This document shows, in pieces, positions 45,563 to 56,066 of a DNA stretch of 64,000 bases. This stretch comes from a virus. The position numbers and the translations under genes were made by a program. The stretch covers positions 1,667-65,666 of the IMG/VR virus record IMGVR_UViG_3300020202_000892. The stretch is one strand, 5' to 3'. Under the pieces are notes generated by a model. It did no database searches and was not told the DNA's origin. It saw nothing but the letters and a program-made list of their open reading frames with translations. Position 1 is the stretch's first letter; every line of letters starts with the position of its first letter.

Positions 45563-46048
45563 TCAGGCTATCGTCCGCACCCGGATCCGGGCGCCGGGGG
45601 TCTCGTCGAGCTCGGCCTCGCGCTTGCTGCCGACCCATCGCACCACCTGTGCGTCGTCGGCCCACACGATCGTGGTGAGCGAGTCCCACACCGCGCGCTC
45701 GAGCTTGTCCCCGTCGGGCTTGCGGGTGTGCGGGTCGGTGCGGCCCTTGGGCGCGGACTTGCGCCGAGGCATCACGAAGTCGATCTCCACGTGCACGGGC
45801 GCGGTGGTCGGACCCCGGTCCCACACCTGGCCGATCTCGTCCCGCACGTAGGCCTGCCACGCGCGCTGGTTCTTGCTGTTGGTCGGGATCGCCACCGCTC
45901 GGCCGGTCTTGTTGTGTCTGACCGCGATCAGGCTGCCCTTGGTGGTCGGGGTGCCCGGAACGAACACGTCCAGGTCCCAGGCCGGCTGTGTCGGCTCGGC
46001 GGGGGTCCACTCCGTGGGGCCGCACCCCAGATCCAGCGGCGTGGTCAT
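45563..46048 (-). CDS. rusA: RusA-like Holliday junction resolvase
   Basis: VPGTPTTKGS, KPDGDKLERAVWDSL, WADDAQVV. Confidence 0.88.
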   Translation of the reverse strand: MTTPLDLGCGPTEWTPAEPTQPAWDLDVFVPGTPTTKGSLIAVRHNKTGRAVAIPTNSKNQRAWQAYVRDEIGQVWDRGPTTAPVHVEIDFVMPRRKSAPKGRTDPHTRKPDGDKLERAVWDSLTTIVWADDAQVVRWVGSKREAELDETPGARIRVRTIA

Positions 46049-46227: not shown

Positions 46228-46571
46228 GGCTCGATCATCTCCAGCCGCACCGACTCGGTGGTCTTGGTGAAGCGCTCGGCCAGCTCGGGCTCCTTGGCCT
46301 TGAGCGCCGTGGTGTCGATCCGGCGCGTGGTGACCGTGCGGACCCGCACCAGGAGCTGGCCGTCGACCGCGCCGAACTCGGCGTTGCGCTCGGCGACGTA
46401 CCCGACGATCTCGTCGCGGGTCTCCTTGAGCCGCTCGGCGATGTCGCGCTCCATCTCCTTGAGCTTGCGGTAGCGCGCGACCCGGTCGGCGATCGGGTAG
46501 ACGTCGACCGTCGCGGCGGTCTCCTCGGCGTTCTCGACGTTCTCCGGGGCATCCAGCTTGCCCAGCGTCAT
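46224..46571 (-). CDS. Recombination-associated coiled-coil protein
   Basis: RRIDTTALKAKEPELAERFTKTT motif, like YqaJ C-terminal regions. Confidence 0.6.
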   Translation of the reverse strand: MTLGKLDAPENVENAEETAATVDVYPIADRVARYRKLKEMERDIAERLKETRDEIVGYVAERNAEFGAVDGQLLVRVRTVTTRRIDTTALKAKEPELAERFTKTTESVRLEMIEP

Positions 46572-47329
46572 GACGGTTCCTTCCCGGGGCACAGGCCGTC
46601 GGCCTCGGCGCCCTTGAACTCGCAGAAGTAGCAGGCGCCGCCCGGGGTGGCCGGGACGCGCAGCGGGTGCACGCCCAGCTGCACGAACTCCTGCACCTGG
46701 CGCATGCGCTTGAGCGCGCGCAGCGCGGCGTCCAGGTCGAACGGCTCGGACCAGATATGCAGGTCGCTCAGGCGCTTGGACCGGCCGAAGAAGCCGATCC
46801 CGACCTTGTTGACCTTGTAACCGAGACGCAGATACCCGAGGCCGTAGCAGTGCGCCTGGGTGCGGTAGGTCTCGCTCGGGCCCTCGGTCGTGTACTTGCG
46901 GTACTGCGTCTCGCCGAGGATCTTCCAGTCCAACACCGTGCCGGTCGGCTCGTGGAAGCAGTCGCACGACCCACTCAGCCCGAAGCCGACGTCGACCCGG
47001 CGCTCCAGGTGCCACGGCGGCGCGGTGCCGGCCTGACGAGCGAGGTTGTTGGCGTGGGTGAAGGCGTCCGCCAGCCAGGCGTGCGTGGCCGTGCCGATGA
47101 TCGAGGGCCACGGGTCGTGCAGGTCGCGAGAGCGCTCGACGGCCGGGGACATCTTGTAGGCCAGCTGGCGCGCGCACGGGGTGCCGACCTCGGAGGGGCC
47201 CACGGCGCGCTGCAGGTTGCGGGGGGCGTTGGTCGCGAAGTTGCGGATCGTGTGGATGATCTCGGCGCGCAACCCGGTCTGATCCGGGTGCTGCACCTGC
47301 TTGGGGGGCGGCAGGCTACCGAGCGCCAT
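46568..47329 (-). CDS. Cas4-like PD-(D/E)xK exonuclease
   Basis: SEVGTPCARQ, GTATH, GSCD, VLDWK, QAHCY, CYFC...C. Confidence 0.85.
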   Translation of the reverse strand: MALGSLPPPKQVQHPDQTGLRAEIIHTIRNFATNAPRNLQRAVGPSEVGTPCARQLAYKMSPAVERSRDLHDPWPSIIGTATHAWLADAFTHANNLARQAGTAPPWHLERRVDVGFGLSGSCDCFHEPTGTVLDWKILGETQYRKYTTEGPSETYRTQAHCYGLGYLRLGYKVNKVGIGFFGRSKRLSDLHIWSEPFDLDAALRALKRMRQVQEFVQLGVHPLRVPATPGGACYFCEFKGAEADGLCPGKEPS

Positions 47330-47561
47330 CGAGGTCCCCGATCTGAGTGGAGAGGGCGCCCAGCGCGTCGTAGAGCTCGTTCGACTGCAGCCGCACCGTG
47401 TGGCGCGGGGCCGGCGGCATCTCCACCCACGCCGACCGCACGTCGTCGGCCAGCCCGTACAGCCGACGCACCTCGGCGGCGAGCGCGGCCGTCACCGGGT
47501 CGCCTTCCATGGTGTTCGCGATCTGCAGCGCCCACCTCACGCTGATTCCGGCGGCCATCAC
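47316..47561 (-). CDS. Hypothetical protein
   Basis: ORF track; overlaps. Confidence 0.5.
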   Translation of the reverse strand: MMAAGISVRWALQIANTMEGDPVTAALAAEVRRLYGLADDVRSAWVEMPPAPRHTVRLQSNELYDALGALSTQIGDLDGAR

Positions 47562-48595: not shown

Positions 48596-50866
48596 TCACG
48601 CAGACGGTACCGTCACCTGCTGCATCACCCACGCTCCGAGGCCGTCCACATTGGTCTGGTACTGCCCGACGGTGATCACATCGGCGACGTAGCCCGCAGT
48701 GGCGTCATCCGGGATCTCGTGGTGTGGATCGACCCGGCGAGCGACCGCGCGAGCCGGTGCCCCGGGGGCGGACTCCTTGCGTCGCCACGAGGCGTTCGGG
48801 TCGATCAGGTTGACCGCGCCGGATTCATCGGCGGCGCGCTGAACGATCAGCCGATACGCGTCGTCCTCGCTGCGCAGCACGCCGGAGATCGTGTCCACCA
48901 CGCCGGTCTTGGCCACCTGGATCACCGGCTGCCACGCAGTACCGCCGTCCGGGGCTGGCACCGCGACGGCGACCAGCAACGCGGCCACCTCGGCCTTCGA
49001 GGCCCGGAACAGGCTCGCCCCGTTGCCGGAATCGGCCCCGGAGTGCACCGGCAGCCACAGGTGCCCGGCGCCGGAGCGGAAGCACCAGCCGTGCCGCGCG
49101 GGGTGGCTCGGGCGGCGCGAGCGCGGCCCGCCGCGGACCTTGAGCCCCTGCACCTCACCAGGGGCCGGCGGCGTGTAGTGCTCGCCCTCCTCGCCGAACA
49201 GCTCCCCGCGCACCGTGCCGACGTAGCCGGTCACCATCGCGCGCGCGACCTCACCCTCGGGCTCCTCGCGTAGCGCGGTCAGGGCGTCGCGCATCCCGTC
49301 CTTGAGCACCTCGAGCCGGCCAAGGACCAGCCGCGCCGCGGCGACCTCCTCGGCCAGATGCGACTCGGTGGCCGAGAGCTCGTCGAGCGGCTGCTCCTGG
49401 GTGGCCTGCAGACCTCGGTCGACGGCCGTGGTGGTGTGGTCGAAGACCTGCGGGAGCAGCGGCTCGGCGCGCTGCACGAACTCGTCCAGGCCAGGCAGCT
49501 TCTTGACCAGTGCCTCGGCCGTGAGGCGCATCTGCTCGACGGCGCGCTCGGCGCGCTCCTGGGTGGTGCGGGCGTGGGCGACGTGCGCCGTGATCCGGTC
49601 CAGACGGCCTTGGCGGGCGCGCGCGGTGCGGTCGAGCAGCTCGACGAGGTTCTCGTCCCGGCTCGCGGTGAGCACCTCGTGGTCGGTCAGCGCCTCGATC
49701 CCGACCAGCGTGTGCCCGTCGGAGGCGCCCGCGACGTCGAGCACGATCGCGTGGTCCTTGCCCGGGGCCGGGCGCAGCGCGCGACCGATCGCCTGCCGGA
49801 AGAAGATGCGGCTCTTGGTGGGCCGGGCCAGCACCACCGTGTCGATCTCCGGGATGTCGAAGCCCTCGCCGATGATGCCCACGTTGGACAGCCAGCGGAT
49901 CTCGTCGTTGCGGAAGGCTTTGATCACCTTGTCCCGCTCCGGGGTGGCCATCGTGCCGTCCACGTGCCCGCAACGCTCACCCATCGCGGTGACCCGCTCG
50001 GCCAGGTAGCGCGAGCTGGCCACGGTCGGTGCGAAGATCGCGCCCTTGCGCCCGGCGAGCTCGGTGGCGATCGCCTCGGCCACGATGTCGAACGCGCCGG
50101 AACGCTCCATCGCCGCGGCCAGGTCGGCCTCCCGGAAGTCGACCGCGCCCGAGCGCATCGAGGTGGGCACCTCCGACAGGTCCAGCCCGTCCACGATCAG
50201 GTGCCGCAATTGCGGCGGGACGAGGTAGCCCGCACCGGGCGCGCACTCCTTCTCGCCACCGGCGCCGTCGTCTGCGTGCGTGATCAACCACGAGATGTCG
50301 ATTGAAGCGACGATCGCCTCGAAGATGTCGGAGAAGTCGCGGTGGTCCTCGCGGAACGGGGTCGCGGTCACCCCCAGCGTGCGAATGCCGGAGAACGCGC
50401 CCAGCGCGGTGAGCACGCGCTTGAACATGTCCGCGGCGAAGTGGTGCGCCTCGTCGCAGATGATCAGGCTGGGGTCCGGGAAGACGGCCATCGTCGAGCG
50501 CGAGGCCAGGGTCTGCACGGTGGACACCAGCACGTCGGCCCGGCGCCAGGTGGCCAGCGCCTTGGCGCGGCGCGTAGATCGTTCCGGACCCGGGGAGCCG
50601 ATCACCGTCGCCACGCGGAGATCGGGGTTCGCCCGGGAGAAGTGCCCGGCGGCCTGGGTGACCAGCTCGCGGCGGTGCGCCAGCAGCACGACCGGCCCGG
50701 CGTCGCGGTGGTGGGACAGGTGCCGGCGCGCGACGTCGCCGAAGATCACGCTCTTCCCGGCCCCGGTGGCCGCGGAGATCGCGGGGCGCATCATCCCGGC
50801 GTCCCACGCGGAGAAGATCGCCTCGACGGTGCGCAGCTGGTAGGGCCGCAGGGTAGGTGCGGTCAT
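48596..50866 (-). CDS. SF2 DEAD/DEAH-box helicase with long C-terminal extension
   Basis: LRPYQ, ATGAGKS, DEAHH, VTATPFR, GEGFDIP, QAIGRALR. Confidence 0.92.
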   Translation of the reverse strand: MTAPTLRPYQLRTVEAIFSAWDAGMMRPAISAATGAGKSVIFGDVARRHLSHHRDAGPVVLLAHRRELVTQAAGHFSRANPDLRVATVIGSPGPERSTRRAKALATWRRADVLVSTVQTLASRSTMAVFPDPSLIICDEAHHFAADMFKRVLTALGAFSGIRTLGVTATPFREDHRDFSDIFEAIVASIDISWLITHADDGAGGEKECAPGAGYLVPPQLRHLIVDGLDLSEVPTSMRSGAVDFREADLAAAMERSGAFDIVAEAIATELAGRKGAIFAPTVASSRYLAERVTAMGERCGHVDGTMATPERDKVIKAFRNDEIRWLSNVGIIGEGFDIPEIDTVVLARPTKSRIFFRQAIGRALRPAPGKDHAIVLDVAGASDGHTLVGIEALTDHEVLTASRDENLVELLDRTARARQGRLDRITAHVAHARTTQERAERAVEQMRLTAEALVKKLPGLDEFVQRAEPLLPQVFDHTTTAVDRGLQATQEQPLDELSATESHLAEEVAAARLVLGRLEVLKDGMRDALTALREEPEGEVARAMVTGYVGTVRGELFGEEGEHYTPPAPGEVQGLKVRGGPRSRRPSHPARHGWCFRSGAGHLWLPVHSGADSGNGASLFRASKAEVAALLVAVAVPAPDGGTAWQPVIQVAKTGVVDTISGVLRSEDDAYRLIVQRAADESGAVNLIDPNASWRRKESAPGAPARAVARRVDPHHEIPDDATAGYVADVITVGQYQTNVDGLGAWVMQQVTVPSA

Positions 50867-51006
50867 CGGTCGACCGGCTGCCACTCGTGACCGTCCCAGC
50901 GCCAGATCCGACCCCTCCAGCGCCGGAGAGCTCCGTCGGATCGGATCACCGCGAAGTCGTGCGGTGGGATGTCGTGGGGCGGGCGTTCGTCATCGGGGGC
51001 CGTCAT
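50863..51006 (-). CDS. Small hypothetical protein (47 aa)
   Basis: AGGAGG RBS; ATGA overlap with helicase start. Confidence 0.55.
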   Translation of the reverse strand: MTAPDDERPPHDIPPHDFAVIRSDGALRRWRGRIWRWDGHEWQPVDR

Positions 51007-51122: not shown

Positions 51123-51323
51123 ATGCCCGTCATGGAGGCAGTCATGGAGCGGTGGATGGGCCGGAACGAGGCGGCGGCGTACCTCAAGGTCAGCGTTCGG
51201 ACGTTCGACCGGCTGGTGCGCGAGGGCAAGGTCCACAAGTTCTCGGCGACGGGCCGGCGGCAGGCACTGTTCGACCGCCAGCAGCTCGACGCCTACGTGC
51301 AGAGCCAGAGGCAGAAGCCATGA
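51123..51323 (+). CDS. Excisionase-like (HTH_17) DNA-binding protein
   Basis: WMGRNEAAAYLKVSVRTFDRLVREG...FDRQQLDAYV. Confidence 0.85.
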   Translation: MPVMEAVMERWMGRNEAAAYLKVSVRTFDRLVREGKVHKFSATGRRQALFDRQQLDAYVQSQRQKP

Positions 51324-51628
51324 CCGAGCTGTCGCCCACCCAGGTCGCGCTGCGCGAGCTCACGATGCTCACGAAGTGCTATTGCGACGGAGAGCATCCG
51401 CGGCTGGGGCACAACTGCAGCTTCCGGCCCGACGTCCTGACGCTGGTGACCAACATCGGCAACGTGCTCAAGCTCTGCGATGAGCGCAGCGGGCTGTGGG
51501 ACGACGGTCGCATCCCGGCCGAGGACGTCCGGCGCACGCTGCTGGGGCTGTCCACAGGAGACGGCGGCGCAACCGATGACCCGCCGTGGAGTAACGAGGA
51601 GGGGGAGGGGCCTTCCATGCCGGGATAG
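51320..51628 (+). CDS. Hypothetical protein
   Basis: ATGA overlap; CYC...HNC motif. Confidence 0.6.
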   Translation: MTELSPTQVALRELTMLTKCYCDGEHPRLGHNCSFRPDVLTLVTNIGNVLKLCDERSGLWDDGRIPAEDVRRTLLGLSTGDGGATDDPPWSNEEGEGPSMPG

Positions 51629-51776
51629 GCTCACCGACACCTCACGCCGCGACGCTCCCCAACGTCCCGCGGCGGGGGTGCTGCCGACCTCCAGACGTGA
51701 GACGGCCGGATCCGGGTGCTGGCAACACCTGGTCGGATCCGGCCGTCGACGCCTCAGCAGAAAGCGCAGGTACAGC

Positions 51777-54700
51777 ATGTCATACCCCGACCCGTCGCAC
51801 GACGAGGTCCCGCAACACGTCACTCCGTTCAGCCCTCTGGCTTCGGAGAAGTTCCGCCGCTCCGGTCTGGACGAGGACTTCGTTCGGTCCATGGGAGTGC
51901 GCCCGGTCCTGACCCCCGACGACCTCCCCGAGGGGATCCGGGGGGAGAACTACGCGCCCGTGCCGGGGGTGCTGTTCCCGTGGTCGGACGGCCCCGACTC
52001 GGAGAAGGTCTGGCAGTACCGACCCGACAAGCCGGTGGAGGAGGGGCTCAAGTACGTCTTCCCCAAGGGCCGCCACCAGCCGTTCGGACTGGTTCGCCCG
52101 GCCAGCCGGTACCCGCAGCGCATCGCGATCGTCGAGGGCACGTTGCAGAGCCTGGTCATGGCGCGCTACGCGCCGGATGACGTGGCGGTCTACGCCATCC
52201 CCGGCTGCTGGGGTTGGTCACACGAGGAGAAGCCGGCATCGGGCCTGGGCGTGGTCGACGGGTCGGACGTGTACGTCTTCCTGGACGCGGATGCCGGCAC
52301 GAAGATCGACGTCTACACCGCGGGGGCCGAGCTGGAGAAGGCGTTGCGCGCACGCGGCGCGGCGGATGTCTGGTTCGCCCGGCTGCCGGTGCGCGGGTCC
52401 AACGGGGTCGACGACTTCCTCGGCTCGGTGGAACCGGAGGGGCGGGCGAAGGCGGTCGGCGCGCTGCTGGAAGGTGCGAAGCACAAGCCGGCCGACGCGA
52501 AGCCGAAGGGCAAGACGCGTCGGGGGAACGACCTGTTCCCGACCAACGACACCATCCTCGCCACCACCTGGGCCGACCAGAACCGCGACGTGTTCCGGTG
52601 GCTGGCCGACGACGAGGGGTGGATGCGGTTCCGGTTGGGTCGGTGGGAGGAGACCGGGCCGAGCGTGGTCGGCTCCTCGGTGGGCGTGTTCCTGGCCGGA
52701 GTCGCCGAGGCCTACCAGGCCGAGGGTGATGACGACGAGGTCAAGACGTTGCTCTCGCAGAGCAAGCTCGCCGCGGTGCGCGCACGGGCCAGCGCCTACG
52801 ACGCGATCCACGTGCAGCGCGCCCAGCTCGACCGGCACCCGCGGCTGTGGAACGCAGGTAACGGGGTGATCGACCTCGAGTCCGGCGGGTTCTTCGAGCA
52901 CGACCCGAACCTGATGATGACCACCGGTTCGGATGTGCCCTACCTGCCGGACGCGGCGTGCCCACGGTTCGACGAGTTCTTCGCCGACATCCTCCCCGAC
53001 GAGGAGGTGCGCGCGTTCCTGCTGCGGCTGTTCGGCGTGGCGATGTTCGGCGAGGTGCGCGGGGACGCGCAGATCTTCCCGGTGCTCATCGGCGAGGGAC
53101 GCAACGGCAAGGGCGCGCTCGTGCGGATCATGGAGAAGCTGTTCGGTCGGCACGCGGTGAAGGTGTCAGCCTCGGCGCTGCTGGAGCGCAAGTTCGAGGC
53201 GCACTCCCAGGAGGTGATCAAGCTCCGCGGGAAGCGCCTGGCGACGGCCGAGGAGACCTCGCAGAACGCCCGCTGGGACACCGCGCGGATCAAGAGCTGG
53301 ACCGGCGGGGACACGCTGGTCGGCCGGTTCATGATGCAGAACGACGAGGAGTTCGTCCCGTCGCACACCCTGCTGATGTCGACCAACCACCGGCCGAACG
53401 TGTCGATGGACGAGTCGGCGTTCTGGATGCGCTACCGGGAGGTCCCCTTCACCGTCTCCGTCGAGGGGCGCGAGGACCCCACGCTCGAGCCGCACATCAT
53501 CGGCCAGGAGCTGCCCGGGGTGCTCAACCGCCTGTTGGCTGGCGTCCGGGACTACCTGGATCGCGGGCTCGCGGCACCGGCCGCGGTGGTGGTGGCCACC
53601 GAGGAGGCCCGCGCCGAGACCAACCGCCTGGCGATCTTCGCCGAGGAGATGCTGGTCGTCACGAACGACGAGAACGACCGCGTCCTGCACGCCGACATGC
53701 GCGACCGCGCCGAGAAGTGGTGGTCACAGCACGTGAGGAACGAGCCGTTCCCGTCGGACCGCGGACGGGGCAAGTTCGTCCCGCTGCTGCGCTCCGCGCT
53801 CGGTCTCGTCGAGGGCGTCGTGGGCAACCCGCGGCCCATCGGGAAGGGCAGCGGGCAGCGCACCACGTGGGTCGGGGTGCGGTGGCTCGGGGACGGCGGA
53901 GGGGGCTCCAGGGGGTCTGCCCCATTGCTTCCGCTCAATAGGGCAGACCTGGCCCCGGCGGCCCCTGCACCGGCCGAAGGTCACGAGAAGGTCACGGAGG
54001 CGCCGGAGGGGGGTCTGCCCCATTCCGACGGGGGGTCTGCCCTAAAGTCTGCCCCATCAAATGATCTTGACGATGACAACATCGCAGGTCAAGAGGTGGT
54101 TTCTGAACGGTCTGCCCCATCTGCCCCAAGAAAGGTCCTTGTCTCGCATATAGGAAGAGATGAAGAGGGGTACTTGAACGGTTCAGAAGGTGATGTGTGT
54201 GTCGTAGGGGCGAGTACAGATAGGGCAATAGGGCAGACGGCCCCCCATGGGGCAGCCCCGGCGGCGCTCGGCGACCCCGTCGTCTTCGACCTGGAGACCG
54301 CCGACGCCGAGCACCTGTACGACCACCCGGACCCCCGCGGGTTCGTCAGGATCGCCGGTCGGACCACCCCTGACGGAGTGGTCGTCGACGCCGGTCCGGA
54401 CGCCGTCATCGAGGCGGTGCTCTCGTCACGCCGCGTGATCGGGCACAACGTCGTGCACTTCGACCTGCCCGCGCTGGCTCGAGTCGACGGGAGGGTCGAC
54501 GTGCTCACGATGACGCGCGATCGCCGCGTGCTCGACACCATGATCACCGAGTCGGTGCTGCACCCGATCCTGAACGACAAGTCGGCGGGCGCGGTCGCGA
54601 AGGCCGCGAAGTGGTTCAAGCTCGACGCGGTGTGCGAGCGTCGTGGCATCGGCGGGAAGGTCGACGAGATCGCTCGGCTGGCGAAGCTGCACGGCGGGTT

Positions 54701-56066
54701 CGATCAGATCCCGGTCGACGACCCGGACTACCGGACCTACGTCGCGGGGGACGTCGGAGCCGCCCGGATGCTCGCCGCCCTGCAGGCCTCCGAGATTGCC
54801 GCGCTTCCGCAGGCGCAGCAGGACTACCTCTGGCGCGAGCACCGTGTGCACGCGATCGCGGCGACCATGGGAGCGCAGGGCTTCCTCGTGGATCAGGAGC
54901 TGCTGCAGCGTCGGTTCTGGACCGGCTACAACCGCAAGAACGACCTGAGCCGCGCGCTGATCGCCCGCTACGGCATCCCGACCGTGAAGGCCGACGGCAA
55001 GCGCGCGGAGTCCCCAGCGGCCACCAAGGGCGGCAAGGAGGCCATCCTGGCCGCGTTCGCCTCGCTCGGGGTGGACGTCGACACGATGGAGCGCACGCCC
55101 AAGGGCGCGATCGCGTTCGGCAAGGTGCCGATGGAGAATCTCGCCGAGGCCTACGCCGAGCACGCATGCGCCGAGGAGATCACCGCGCTGGCCGAGCTGG
55201 TGGCCGACGTGAACGGGGTGCGCACCGTCTACGGCACGGCTCTGGAGGCGCTGCGGGCCGACGGCCGGGTGCACCCGGAGGTGGCGACCCTGCAGGCGTC
55301 CGGCCGGTGGTCGGTGCGCAAGCCGGGGCTGACCGTGTTCGGGAAGCGCAACGGGCGCCATGTTGAGCGTGCGGTCTTCCGGGCCGCGGAGGGCAACGCG
55401 CTGTTCGCGATCGACCTGTCCCAGATCGACGCGCGGGCGATCGCGGTGCACTCCCAAGATCACGACTACCTGGACCTGTTCCTGCCCGGCCGCGACGCGC
55501 ACGAGATCGTGGCCCGGATGGTGTGGGGTGACGCGGTCTACGACTCCGACCGCAAGCGCTACCGGCAGGAGATCAAGGCGATCACCCACGGGCTCCCGTA
55601 CGGCATGGGGGTGCCGAAGCTGGCCGCGCACGCGAAGGTGTCCGAGGAGCTCGCACGCCGGGTGGTCGACACGATGAACGAGCGCTTCCCCCGGCTGCAG
55701 GCTTGGAAGGACGAGGTCCGCGAGGAGGTGCGCGCCGGCAAGCCGCTGGACAACGGGTTCGGCCGGGTCATGCTCGCCGACCCGGATCGGGCTTACACCC
55801 AGGCGCCCGCGCTGATGGGCCAGGGCACCGCTCGAGACCTGATGATGGAGGCGTTGCTGCGGCTGCCCGACTTCGCCGTGCGGATGCTGCGCGCCCAGGT
55901 GCACGACGAGGCCGTGTTCGAGGTCCCGCTCGTGCTGGCCGACCAGATCGTCCCGAGGATCGAGCAGGCGTTCAACTTCGAGTGGGCGCCCCCCGGCGCC
56001 TCGCGTCCGGTGCAGATCGTGGCGGAGGCGGGCAAGCTGGGGGTCTCGTGGGCCGAGTGCTACTAG
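51777..56066 (+). CDS. Primase (Toprim)-SF3/D5 helicase-family A DNA polymerase fusion
   Basis: Toprim IVEG...LDAD; Walker A GEGRNGKG; exonuclease VFDLET, GHNVVHFD; Pol motifs DLSQIDAR, RQEIKAITHGLPYG, QVHDE in one ORF. Confidence 0.92.
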   Translation: MSYPDPSHDEVPQHVTPFSPLASEKFRRSGLDEDFVRSMGVRPVLTPDDLPEGIRGENYAPVPGVLFPWSDGPDSEKVWQYRPDKPVEEGLKYVFPKGRHQPFGLVRPASRYPQRIAIVEGTLQSLVMARYAPDDVAVYAIPGCWGWSHEEKPASGLGVVDGSDVYVFLDADAGTKIDVYTAGAELEKALRARGAADVWFARLPVRGSNGVDDFLGSVEPEGRAKAVGALLEGAKHKPADAKPKGKTRRGNDLFPTNDTILATTWADQNRDVFRWLADDEGWMRFRLGRWEETGPSVVGSSVGVFLAGVAEAYQAEGDDDEVKTLLSQSKLAAVRARASAYDAIHVQRAQLDRHPRLWNAGNGVIDLESGGFFEHDPNLMMTTGSDVPYLPDAACPRFDEFFADILPDEEVRAFLLRLFGVAMFGEVRGDAQIFPVLIGEGRNGKGALVRIMEKLFGRHAVKVSASALLERKFEAHSQEVIKLRGKRLATAEETSQNARWDTARIKSWTGGDTLVGRFMMQNDEEFVPSHTLLMSTNHRPNVSMDESAFWMRYREVPFTVSVEGREDPTLEPHIIGQELPGVLNRLLAGVRDYLDRGLAAPAAVVVATEEARAETNRLAIFAEEMLVVTNDENDRVLHADMRDRAEKWWSQHVRNEPFPSDRGRGKFVPLLRSALGLVEGVVGNPRPIGKGSGQRTTWVGVRWLGDGGGGSRGSAPLLPLNRADLAPAAPAPAEGHEKVTEAPEGGLPHSDGGSALKSAPSNDLDDDNIAGQEVVSERSAPSAPRKVLVSHIGRDEEGYLNGSEGDVCVVGASTDRAIGQTAPHGAAPAALGDPVVFDLETADAEHLYDHPDPRGFVRIAGRTTPDGVVVDAGPDAVIEAVLSSRRVIGHNVVHFDLPALARVDGRVDVLTMTRDRRVLDTMITESVLHPILNDKSAGAVAKAAKWFKLDAVCERRGIGGKVDEIARLAKLHGGFDQIPVDDPDYRTYVAGDVGAARMLAALQASEIAALPQAQQDYLWREHRVHAIAATMGAQGFLVDQELLQRRFWTGYNRKNDLSRALIARYGIPTVKADGKRAESPAATKGGKEAILAAFASLGVDVDTMERTPKGAIAFGKVPMENLAEAYAEHACAEEITALAELVADVNGVRTVYGTALEALRADGRVHPEVATLQASGRWSVRKPGLTVFGKRNGRHVERAVFRAAEGNALFAIDLSQIDARAIAVHSQDHDYLDLFLPGRDAHEIVARMVWGDAVYDSDRKRYRQEIKAITHGLPYGMGVPKLAAHAKVSEELARRVVDTMNERFPRLQAWKDEVREEVRAGKPLDNGFGRVMLADPDRAYTQAPALMGQGTARDLMMEALLRLPDFAVRMLRAQVHDEAVFEVPLVLADQIVPRIEQAFNFEWAPPGASRPVQIVAEAGKLGVSWAECY
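53914..54255. repeat. Iteron-like repeat cluster (TCTGCCCYA core), putative replication origin
   Basis: About 9 direct and inverted copies in a visibly AT-richer segment of the helicase-polymerase linker. Confidence 0.65.

Follow-up and report, generated by a model that had tools for sequence, protein, structure and literature searches.

A primase-helicase-polymerase fusion gene with an origin-like element in its linker DNA in an uncultured soil actinophage

Described systems with similar architectures

A fusion of a primase, a helicase, and a family A DNA polymerase (PolA) in a single phage protein was described by Kazlauskas et al. in 2016 for Pas55 of the Actinoplanes phage phiAsp2 (PMC4889955). 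Here, this and other described systems are compared with a gene at positions 51777..56066 on the + strand of a 64-kb stretch of DNA from an uncultured soil actinophage (IMG/VR record IMGVR_UViG_3300020202_000892, positions 1,667 to 65,666; hereafter, the window). The gene encodes a fused replicase that consists of a Toprim primase, a superfamily 3 (SF3) helicase, a linker, a 3'-5' exonuclease, and a PolA. Pas55 (NC_005885) is likewise a single chain, of ~1415 amino acids (aa), that begins with a DnaG/Toprim-like primase (DUF3854), has a helicase in the middle, and ends in an exonuclease-PolA; it shares 39.5% identity with the present protein in the primase and polymerase parts, and both proteins show the primase-helicase-polymerase order in one uninterrupted open reading frame (ORF). 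However, the middle of Pas55 is different, as Pfam finds no D5_N or DUF5906 domain in it and it does not align with the present protein, leaving the two helicases without detectable homology. The Pas55-type loci also differ in being devoid of the origin-like signature in the linker DNA that is described below. A 1446-aa protein, WP_181360814 (annotated as “phage/plasmid primase, P4 family”), from the linear plasmid pS1D4-14.2 of Streptomyces sp. S1D4-14, a cultivable carrier, matches the present protein in its four Pfam domains and in their order. This protein differs from the present one in being ~31% identical to it and in being encoded on a 99-kb linear plasmid, beside ParB, rather than on a phage contig; no paper discussing it was found in the literature searched.

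The primase-helicase half of the fused replicase resembles PriRep5 of the staphylococcal pathogenicity island (SaPI) SaPI5 and the SaPI1 Rep protein (7ola, 7pds), in which one chain combines a primase and a self-loading SF3 helicase of the D5 family that has a C-terminal domain. The SaPI Rep proteins are self-loading initiator-helicases that move 3'->5' and whose C-terminal winged helix binds 6 to 12 iterons located just downstream of rep (PMC9371898). As in the present locus, the iterons of SaPI origins directly follow the helicase coding sequence, surround an AT-rich center, and have opposite orientations on its two sides (PMC9371898). However, SaPI origins are noncoding, have no polymerase after them, and are served by the polymerase of the host or helper, whereas here the origin-like DNA is translated in frame into PolA. 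In phage P4, the origin and the crr sites lie outside the alpha gene. Its product, gp-alpha, is a DnaG-type primase joined to an SF3 helicase of the D5 type and to an origin-binding winged helix at the C terminus (PMC4889955); it shares the TIGR01613 assignment with the present protein but has no polymerase. An origin located inside an initiator gene is known from phage lambda, where ori-lambda (initiator-binding repeats followed by an A+T-rich stretch) lies within the O gene, is transcribed, and is activated by transcription through it (PMC5043065). Unlike the fused replicase, the O protein is not a helicase, primase, or polymerase, and the protein families are unrelated. The helicase-primase gp4 of phage T7 moves 5'->3', and the T7 polymerase is a separate protein that is bound noncovalently. 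The likeness to T7 gp4 and gp5 (6n9w, 5ikn) lies in the matching primase fold and in the holding of a polymerase on the helicase ring, although the gp4 helicase belongs to superfamily 4 (SF4). The analogy with apicoplast PREX drawn in an earlier reading of this DNA from its letters and ORFs (the sequence-only reading) is a fair one, as a TOPRIM primase and a helicase are joined to the apicoplast PolA, giving a polyprotein with Toprim primase, helicase, exonuclease, and PolA parts; its PolA differs in falling into an Aquificae-like cluster (PMC10201439). PREX also differs in being eukaryotic and nuclear-encoded and in having no internal origin. Its helicase is Twinkle/DnaB-like (SF4).

With a probability of roughly 60%, we read this locus as a single-gene, self-loading initiator-primase-helicase of the P4-alpha/SaPI PriRep kind that is linked to an actinophage proofreading PolA and whose linker DNA is most likely the phage replication origin. 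The fused protein unites all the core enzymatic steps of DNA replication in one chain and belongs to a large, mostly unannotated family.

Domains of the fused replicase

The sequence-only reading placed a Toprim primase, a D5/P4-type SF3 helicase, a 3'-5' exonuclease, and a PolA in one chain, and all four were recovered by profiles, motifs, and folds, with all catalytic motifs intact (conservation was judged over 15 to 30 relatives). In PHROGs, one half of the protein is labeled DNA primase and the other DNA polymerase. The helicase part, a D5_N collar followed by an SF3 AAA+ helicase and a C-terminal domain (aa 246-709, positions 52512..53903, + strand), can be assigned to the P4-alpha/SaPI PriRep type from the profile matches and the fold. 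The whole protein scores 205.7 bits with the NCBIfam model TIGR01613 “phage/plasmid primase, P4 family” (cutoff, 108.7), and the Pfam scores are 54.7 bits for D5_N (cutoff, 22.4) and 41.0 bits for DUF5906, the SF3 P-loop domain (cutoff, 27.6); the curated cutoffs of TIGR01613, PF08706, and PF19263 are all exceeded. In a structural model of aa 246-740 with a predicted local distance difference test score (pLDDT) of 88, the D5-family helicase fold, including the collar and the C-terminal domain, was aligned over model residues 1-464. The VIA-align matches were C962R of African swine fever virus (Z 32.0) and SaPI5 PriRep5 (7ola; Z 30.4 over model residues 1-450), followed by E5 of monkeypox virus and D5 of vaccinia virus (Z ~27 for both), all of them ring helicases that have been solved as hexamers or double hexamers. 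Walker A residues G444-K445 are conserved, and R552, which we take to be a candidate arginine finger, is invariant across relatives.

The N-terminal part (aa 1-245, positions 51777..52511, + strand) is a predicted DnaG-type primase catalytic core, as judged from its AlphaFold model, Foldseek matches, invariant residues, and a weak Pfam match to the Toprim-like DUF3854 domain. The model of aa 1-255 (pLDDT 91) best matches the DnaG RNA-polymerase domains of Aquifex, Bacillus, Staphylococcus, and E. coli (2au3, 5guj, 4edg, and 3b39; Foldseek probability 1.00, TMq 0.52-0.59) and also matches the primase parts of T7 gp4, T4 gp61, and Twinkle (probability 1.00, TMq 0.40-0.55). The Toprim residues E120, D170xD172, and D212-D213 are invariant across relatives. 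Because the predicted fold matches DnaG RNA-polymerase domains, the model supports the Toprim primase as an entire catalytic core. A DnaG-type zinc-binding domain was not detected, as the first 60 residues contain no Cys/His cluster and the model opens with the catalytic core. Template recognition may therefore differ from that of zinc finger-containing primases, or the helicase or the C-terminal domain may help in priming.

The 3'-5' proofreading exonuclease domain (aa 834-1010, positions 54276..54806, + strand; phrog_17 and phrog_192) carries the ExoI (D838/E840), ExoII (N891/D896), and ExoIII (Y988/D992) motifs, all invariant or nearly so. The family A polymerase domain that follows (aa 1011-1429, positions 54807..56063, + strand) scores 113.4 bits with Pfam DNA_pol_A (cutoff, 34.3) and aligns with the Taq and Klenow polymerases at E 1e-20 across motifs A (D1213), B (R1263/K1267/Y1275), and C (H1376-D1377-E1378). 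This polymerase probably belongs to the actinophage “D29-like” subfamily of family A, described in PMC10201439; 1329 Mycobacterium phage records match the query. In the same 2023 reclassification of family A, the actinophage “D29-like” cluster is listed with “no known partners” (PMC10201439). At the motif B residue that governs dideoxynucleotide discrimination (Phe762 of E. coli Pol I, Phe667 of Taq), the polymerase carries His1271 (positions 55587-55589); all 15 sequences of the family alignment have this His, and so does the separate PolI of the cultured Streptomyces phage Mischief19.

The origin-like element in the linker DNA

The two halves of the protein are joined by a linker of ~124 residues (aa 710-833, positions 53904..54275, + strand), which stands out by predicted disorder where it was modeled, poor protein conservation, and a frame that is nevertheless kept open. 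The sequence-only reading had treated it as a mere low-complexity peptide; no other part of the gene is as unusual as the linker DNA. Clustering of exact sites and repeat density revealed in it an origin-like element (positions 53914..54259) with nine copies of an iteron with the consensus GGTCTGCCCCAT, six in the forward orientation (53914-54128) and three inverted (53937, 54226, and 54247). The exact word TCTGCCCYA occurs 9 times in the window, and 8 of these occurrences, in both orientations, fall within ~340 bp at 53916-54237, where a further copy carries one mismatch. With up to one mismatch allowed, the word is found 22 times in the whole window versus 23.7 expected by chance, and the signal therefore lies in the clustering and not in the number of copies. 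The linker DNA also has the highest density of repeated 9-mers in the window. Between the iterons of opposite orientation lies a low-GC core (positions 54026..54250), in which the GC content of 100-bp windows falls to 50-54%; its 54026-54225 segment is the lowest-GC 200-bp stretch of the window (53% versus ~70%). The forward iterons are located upstream of this core, and two of the inverted copies are located downstream. The GC content at third codon positions (GC3) is 0.91-0.96 in every domain of the protein, 0.59 in the linker, and 0.48 in the linker core, where the codon-position signature is gone, yet the true frame alone is open.

An origin of the iterons as a peptide repeat was considered and rejected. 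The iteron word is translated in three codon phases and from both strands (as SAP, LPH, NRAD, GQT, and HGAA) and is therefore a DNA repeat. In L075, a contig from a different metagenome that is 80% identical, all 9 of the 9 CTGCC cores are retained in a linker with a background identity of ~75%, and both arms of the first inverted pair are altered together (GGTCTG...CAGACC to GGACTG...CAGTCC). The linker substitution rate with respect to L075 is about neutral except in the iteron cores, and the excess of synonymous-site conservation is not clear-cut, so conservation is claimed for the cores only.

The layout established for SaPI origins (PMC9371898), namely, 6 to 12 iterons immediately 3' of the helicase coding sequence, an AT-rich center, and at least two opposed iterons on each side, is found in this linker DNA. 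Because its layout matches that of SaPI rep-ori replicons, the linker DNA is probably a translated replication origin; as the SaPI layout is seen at the SaPI position but is translated into polA, the locus can be read as a P4/SaPI-type pri-rep-ori module in which the origin spacer is read through. In such a module, the C-terminal domain of the helicase would bind the iterons, and hexamers would load on either side of the low-GC core and travel 3'->5' on the leading-strand template. The N-terminal primases, devoid of a zinc finger, would then lay down primers that the C-terminally tethered polymerases would extend, with the chain staying uncleaved.

Related loci were compared by asking whether the 550 bp before ExoI rank in the top 5% of equal-sized places within their own locus. 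Among the 15 fused loci with a D5-type helicase, this was the case for repeats in 9, for inverted repeats in 11, and for a GC dip in 10, with 0.75 expected for each. The corresponding counts for the 29 Pas55-type fused loci were 3, 5, and 1 (1.45 expected for each), and a disordered linker alone therefore does not yield the signal. Judged from these tallies, the origin-like signature goes with the P4/SaPI-type helicase module. The iteron words vary by lineage while the layout stays: in L005, the closest IMG/VR relative (replicase 53% identical), the word is GTGTTGCCGATATCG, with 8 copies in both orientations, and in L010 it is CCTCGTCAG, also with 8 copies. A GC dip at the gene junction was also seen in 4 of the 6 split loci with a D5-type helicase. 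In the Pas55-type loci as a group (29, within L017-L074), neither clustered repeats nor a drop in GC mark the linker DNA, and the origins of these loci must, as far as such patterns indicate, lie elsewhere than in the linker.

Several points weigh against reading the linker DNA as the origin. A single window definition, set once the present locus had been seen, underlies both the repeat and the GC tests; L009 and L010 are almost duplicates of each other, and the 15 D5-type loci thus fall short of full independence; the match of the C-terminal domain comes from the whole helicase model rather than from a fold of that domain by itself; and no signature was found at the junction of the two genes in the cultured phage Mischief19, where the halves are split. 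In addition, L005:12151-12550, located ~1.8 kb downstream of the fused gene, contains ten copies of ACTAATTAG with 32% GC in a 71%-GC locus. This even stronger AT-rich array could be the true origin of L005; it may also be a second origin-like element or something else entirely.

The presence of such a stronger array elsewhere in L005 would suit the alternative in which the linker repeats and the GC dip serve regulation or recombination, form an mRNA structure that delays translation between the two halves, or are the functionless remnant of a recently translated spacer. Single-stranded folding of the linker region is favorable (z = -3.7), as this alternative would have it, and the paired change on both arms of the inverted pair suits a hairpin equally with a symmetric protein site. 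However, five or six direct and three inverted copies flanking a low-GC core make up the initiator-site layout of the SaPI and lambda origins, and the position of the element relative to a homologous helicase is exactly that of SaPI origins. The signature, moreover, tracks the D5-type helicase module and not linkers generally, and variable words in a constant layout are as expected of initiator-origin pairs. We therefore consider a nonorigin role of the element unlikely.

A broader version of the translated-origin reading appears to us evenly poised between true and false. It holds that the gene is a one-gene replicon, in which the linker DNA is a working origin recognized by the C-terminal domain of the same protein and in which the initiator, helicase, primase, polymerase, and origin travel together; that the fusion has arisen and been kept through a readable rep-polA spacer; and that this organization is general to the D5-type branch in actinophages and phage-plasmids. 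If the linker DNA is an origin, the 4.3-kb gene would represent a portable minimal replicon for high-GC Gram-positive hosts, and one stretch of DNA would be subject to two constraints, that of an open reading frame and that of initiator sites and low GC content. The protein could also be a tractable system for asking how an SF3 ring copes with six covalently tethered polymerases and how self-loading helicases melt origins.

The fused frame, its distribution, and its neighborhood

In the helicase model, pLDDT values are below 50 from aa 708 to the model end at aa 740. An alignment of the linkers of relatives has no conserved columns, and amino acid identity to the L075 linker is 0.53-0.65, with change equal at all three codon positions. 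Given the hexameric structural relatives of the helicase, a hexamer of the uncleaved protein would imply six polymerases on tethers of ~124 residues. T7 replisomes also keep spare polymerases on the helicase, so such an excess of polymerases is not absurd. A replisome with six tethered polymerases would not form if the linker were cleaved, or if an internal start freed the polymerase. A linker of this length, disordered where modeled and poorly conserved, would be accessible to proteases, and a TTG codon at 54174 is preceded by a GAGGGG word. However, relatives have neither a conserved Met or Val nor a conserved Shine-Dalgarno word ahead of ExoI, scanning the linker DNA revealed no promoter-like site (and no terminator), and Pfam and PHROGs detect no protease domain within the fused protein. 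Furthermore, the frame is kept open by selection in many lineages, which would be needless if separate products sufficed, as split versions exist and work. Separation of the polymerase from the helicase thus seems improbable. As for an internal start that would yield a free polymerase, this candidate was rejected for want of a conserved start and of a convincing Shine-Dalgarno word.

The open frame itself spans positions 51480 to 56066 on the + strand. The 99 codons that precede the ATG at 51777 are Arg-rich and span the end of the upstream ORF, which they overlap, and then an intergenic stretch with a strong hairpin. The protein starts of relatives align with the ATG at 51777, and the gene is therefore correctly delimited as 51777-56066, with 1429 codons plus a stop, in agreement with the single uninterrupted ORF of ~1430 aa proposed in the sequence-only reading. 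The same fused frame is open in L075, and an open frame of at least 1200 codons that ends at the polymerase C terminus is present in 48 of the 70 IMG/VR loci recovered by a family-alignment scan. Shuffled versions of the linker DNA remain open in just 1.7% of cases, and its other five frames contain 2 to 8 stops each. Because of these observations, a false fusion can be excluded, and the fused replicase, as the compared sequences indicate, is a genuine single gene and not an assembly artifact. Loss of a stop codon or a frameshift through a sequencing or assembly error between adjacent primase-helicase and polA genes can be dismissed as extremely improbable: although the linker composition resembles noncoding DNA and Mischief19, Xkcd426, TP1604, and related cultured Streptomyces phages encode the halves as two neighboring genes of unchanged order, the frame is open not only in the metagenomic loci but also in phiAsp2 and in a finished Streptomyces plasmid, shuffled linkers seldom stay open, and all the alternative frames carry stops.

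The fusion probably arose when translation read through an origin spacer between the primase-helicase and polA genes of split relatives. A tree of the polymerase half intermixes fused and stand-alone forms, and its well-supported branches carry at least 23 changes. Metagenome proteins that look “stand-alone” could be fragmentary, however, and domain calls made on single sequences are not perfect (the plasmid protein, for example, received no Toprim call, whereas Pfam detects DUF3854 in it), and a number of independent fusions is therefore not claimed. One IMG/VR locus (L047:8179) has its primase-helicase and polA halves in frame with each other, with a single TGA between them, which is followed by a GAGGAG word and an ATG; L047 thus is one substitution short of the fused state. 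It was rejected as a fused form, since a normal start with a GAGGAG word after the TGA makes it an ordinary split.

The view that a further fusion to PolA is uncommon is borne out for cultured phages but not for uncultured ones. Among 2391 matching phage records, none covers 80% of the query in one place, and phiAsp2 is, among the matches listed, the sole record with a single feature under the match; one Streptomyces linear plasmid also carries an annotated single-gene fusion. In contrast, the best 150 clusters (at 50% identity) that match the exonuclease-polymerase half include 92 with a length of at least 1200 aa and the polymerase at the C terminus, and a word-indexed search yielded ~95 clusters of 1250 to 1700 aa with this domain set. 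Because the fusion is common in uncultured data, the 48 of 70 loci included, and is already in print for phiAsp2 Pas55, the circumstance that the sequence-only reading itself named as refuting it, a wide spread of the architecture in related phages, largely applies. The architecture is, on the strength of these clusters, already known and widespread in uncultured actinophages; this member differs from the published exemplar in its helicase cassette and has in its linker the origin-like element, for which the sequence statistics and the comparison of loci speak well. The literature searched yielded no study in which such a fusion was purified or an origin in its linker was described, although the coverage of the literature was incomplete and this is not proof of absence. 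Some variants of the fusion have an archaeo-eukaryotic primase (AEP) Prim-Pol head that replaces or precedes the Toprim part, and others have an unrecognized middle like that of Pas55. A 1321-aa metagenome protein (P0150) shows the reversed order, beginning with the exonuclease-PolA and continuing with an AEP Prim-Pol domain and a region that weakly matches DUF3987 (an MCM-like helicase), and represents a different joining of the same three activities.

The IMG/VR record that holds the window is 69,919 bp long, with an estimated completeness of 92%. The window, with a base composition of ~70% GC, encodes a portal, a major head protein, a tape-measure protein, and a terminase, and the cultured phages nearest to the replicase protein are those of Streptomyces and Actinoplanes. 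Neighbors of the replicase gene on the - strand include genes for a superfamily 2 (SF2) helicase (48596-50884), a Cas4-like exonuclease (46568-47491), and a RusA-like resolvase (45563-46048), and a Ro60-type gene is found downstream. A short distance upstream of the replicase gene is a small helix-turn-helix (HTH)/excisionase-like gene of 66 codons (51123-51323; phrog_66, E 5e-10), which points away from the divergent minus-strand block of SF2 helicase, Cas4-like exonuclease, and RusA genes. The 148-bp gap between the stop of the upstream ORF (51628) and the replicase start (51777) contains a strong inverted repeat at 51694-51749 with arms of ~14 bp, GACGGCCGGATCCG...CGGATCCGGCCGTC. This repeat is not followed by a T-run and may serve as a regulatory site or an attenuator of the replicase gene.

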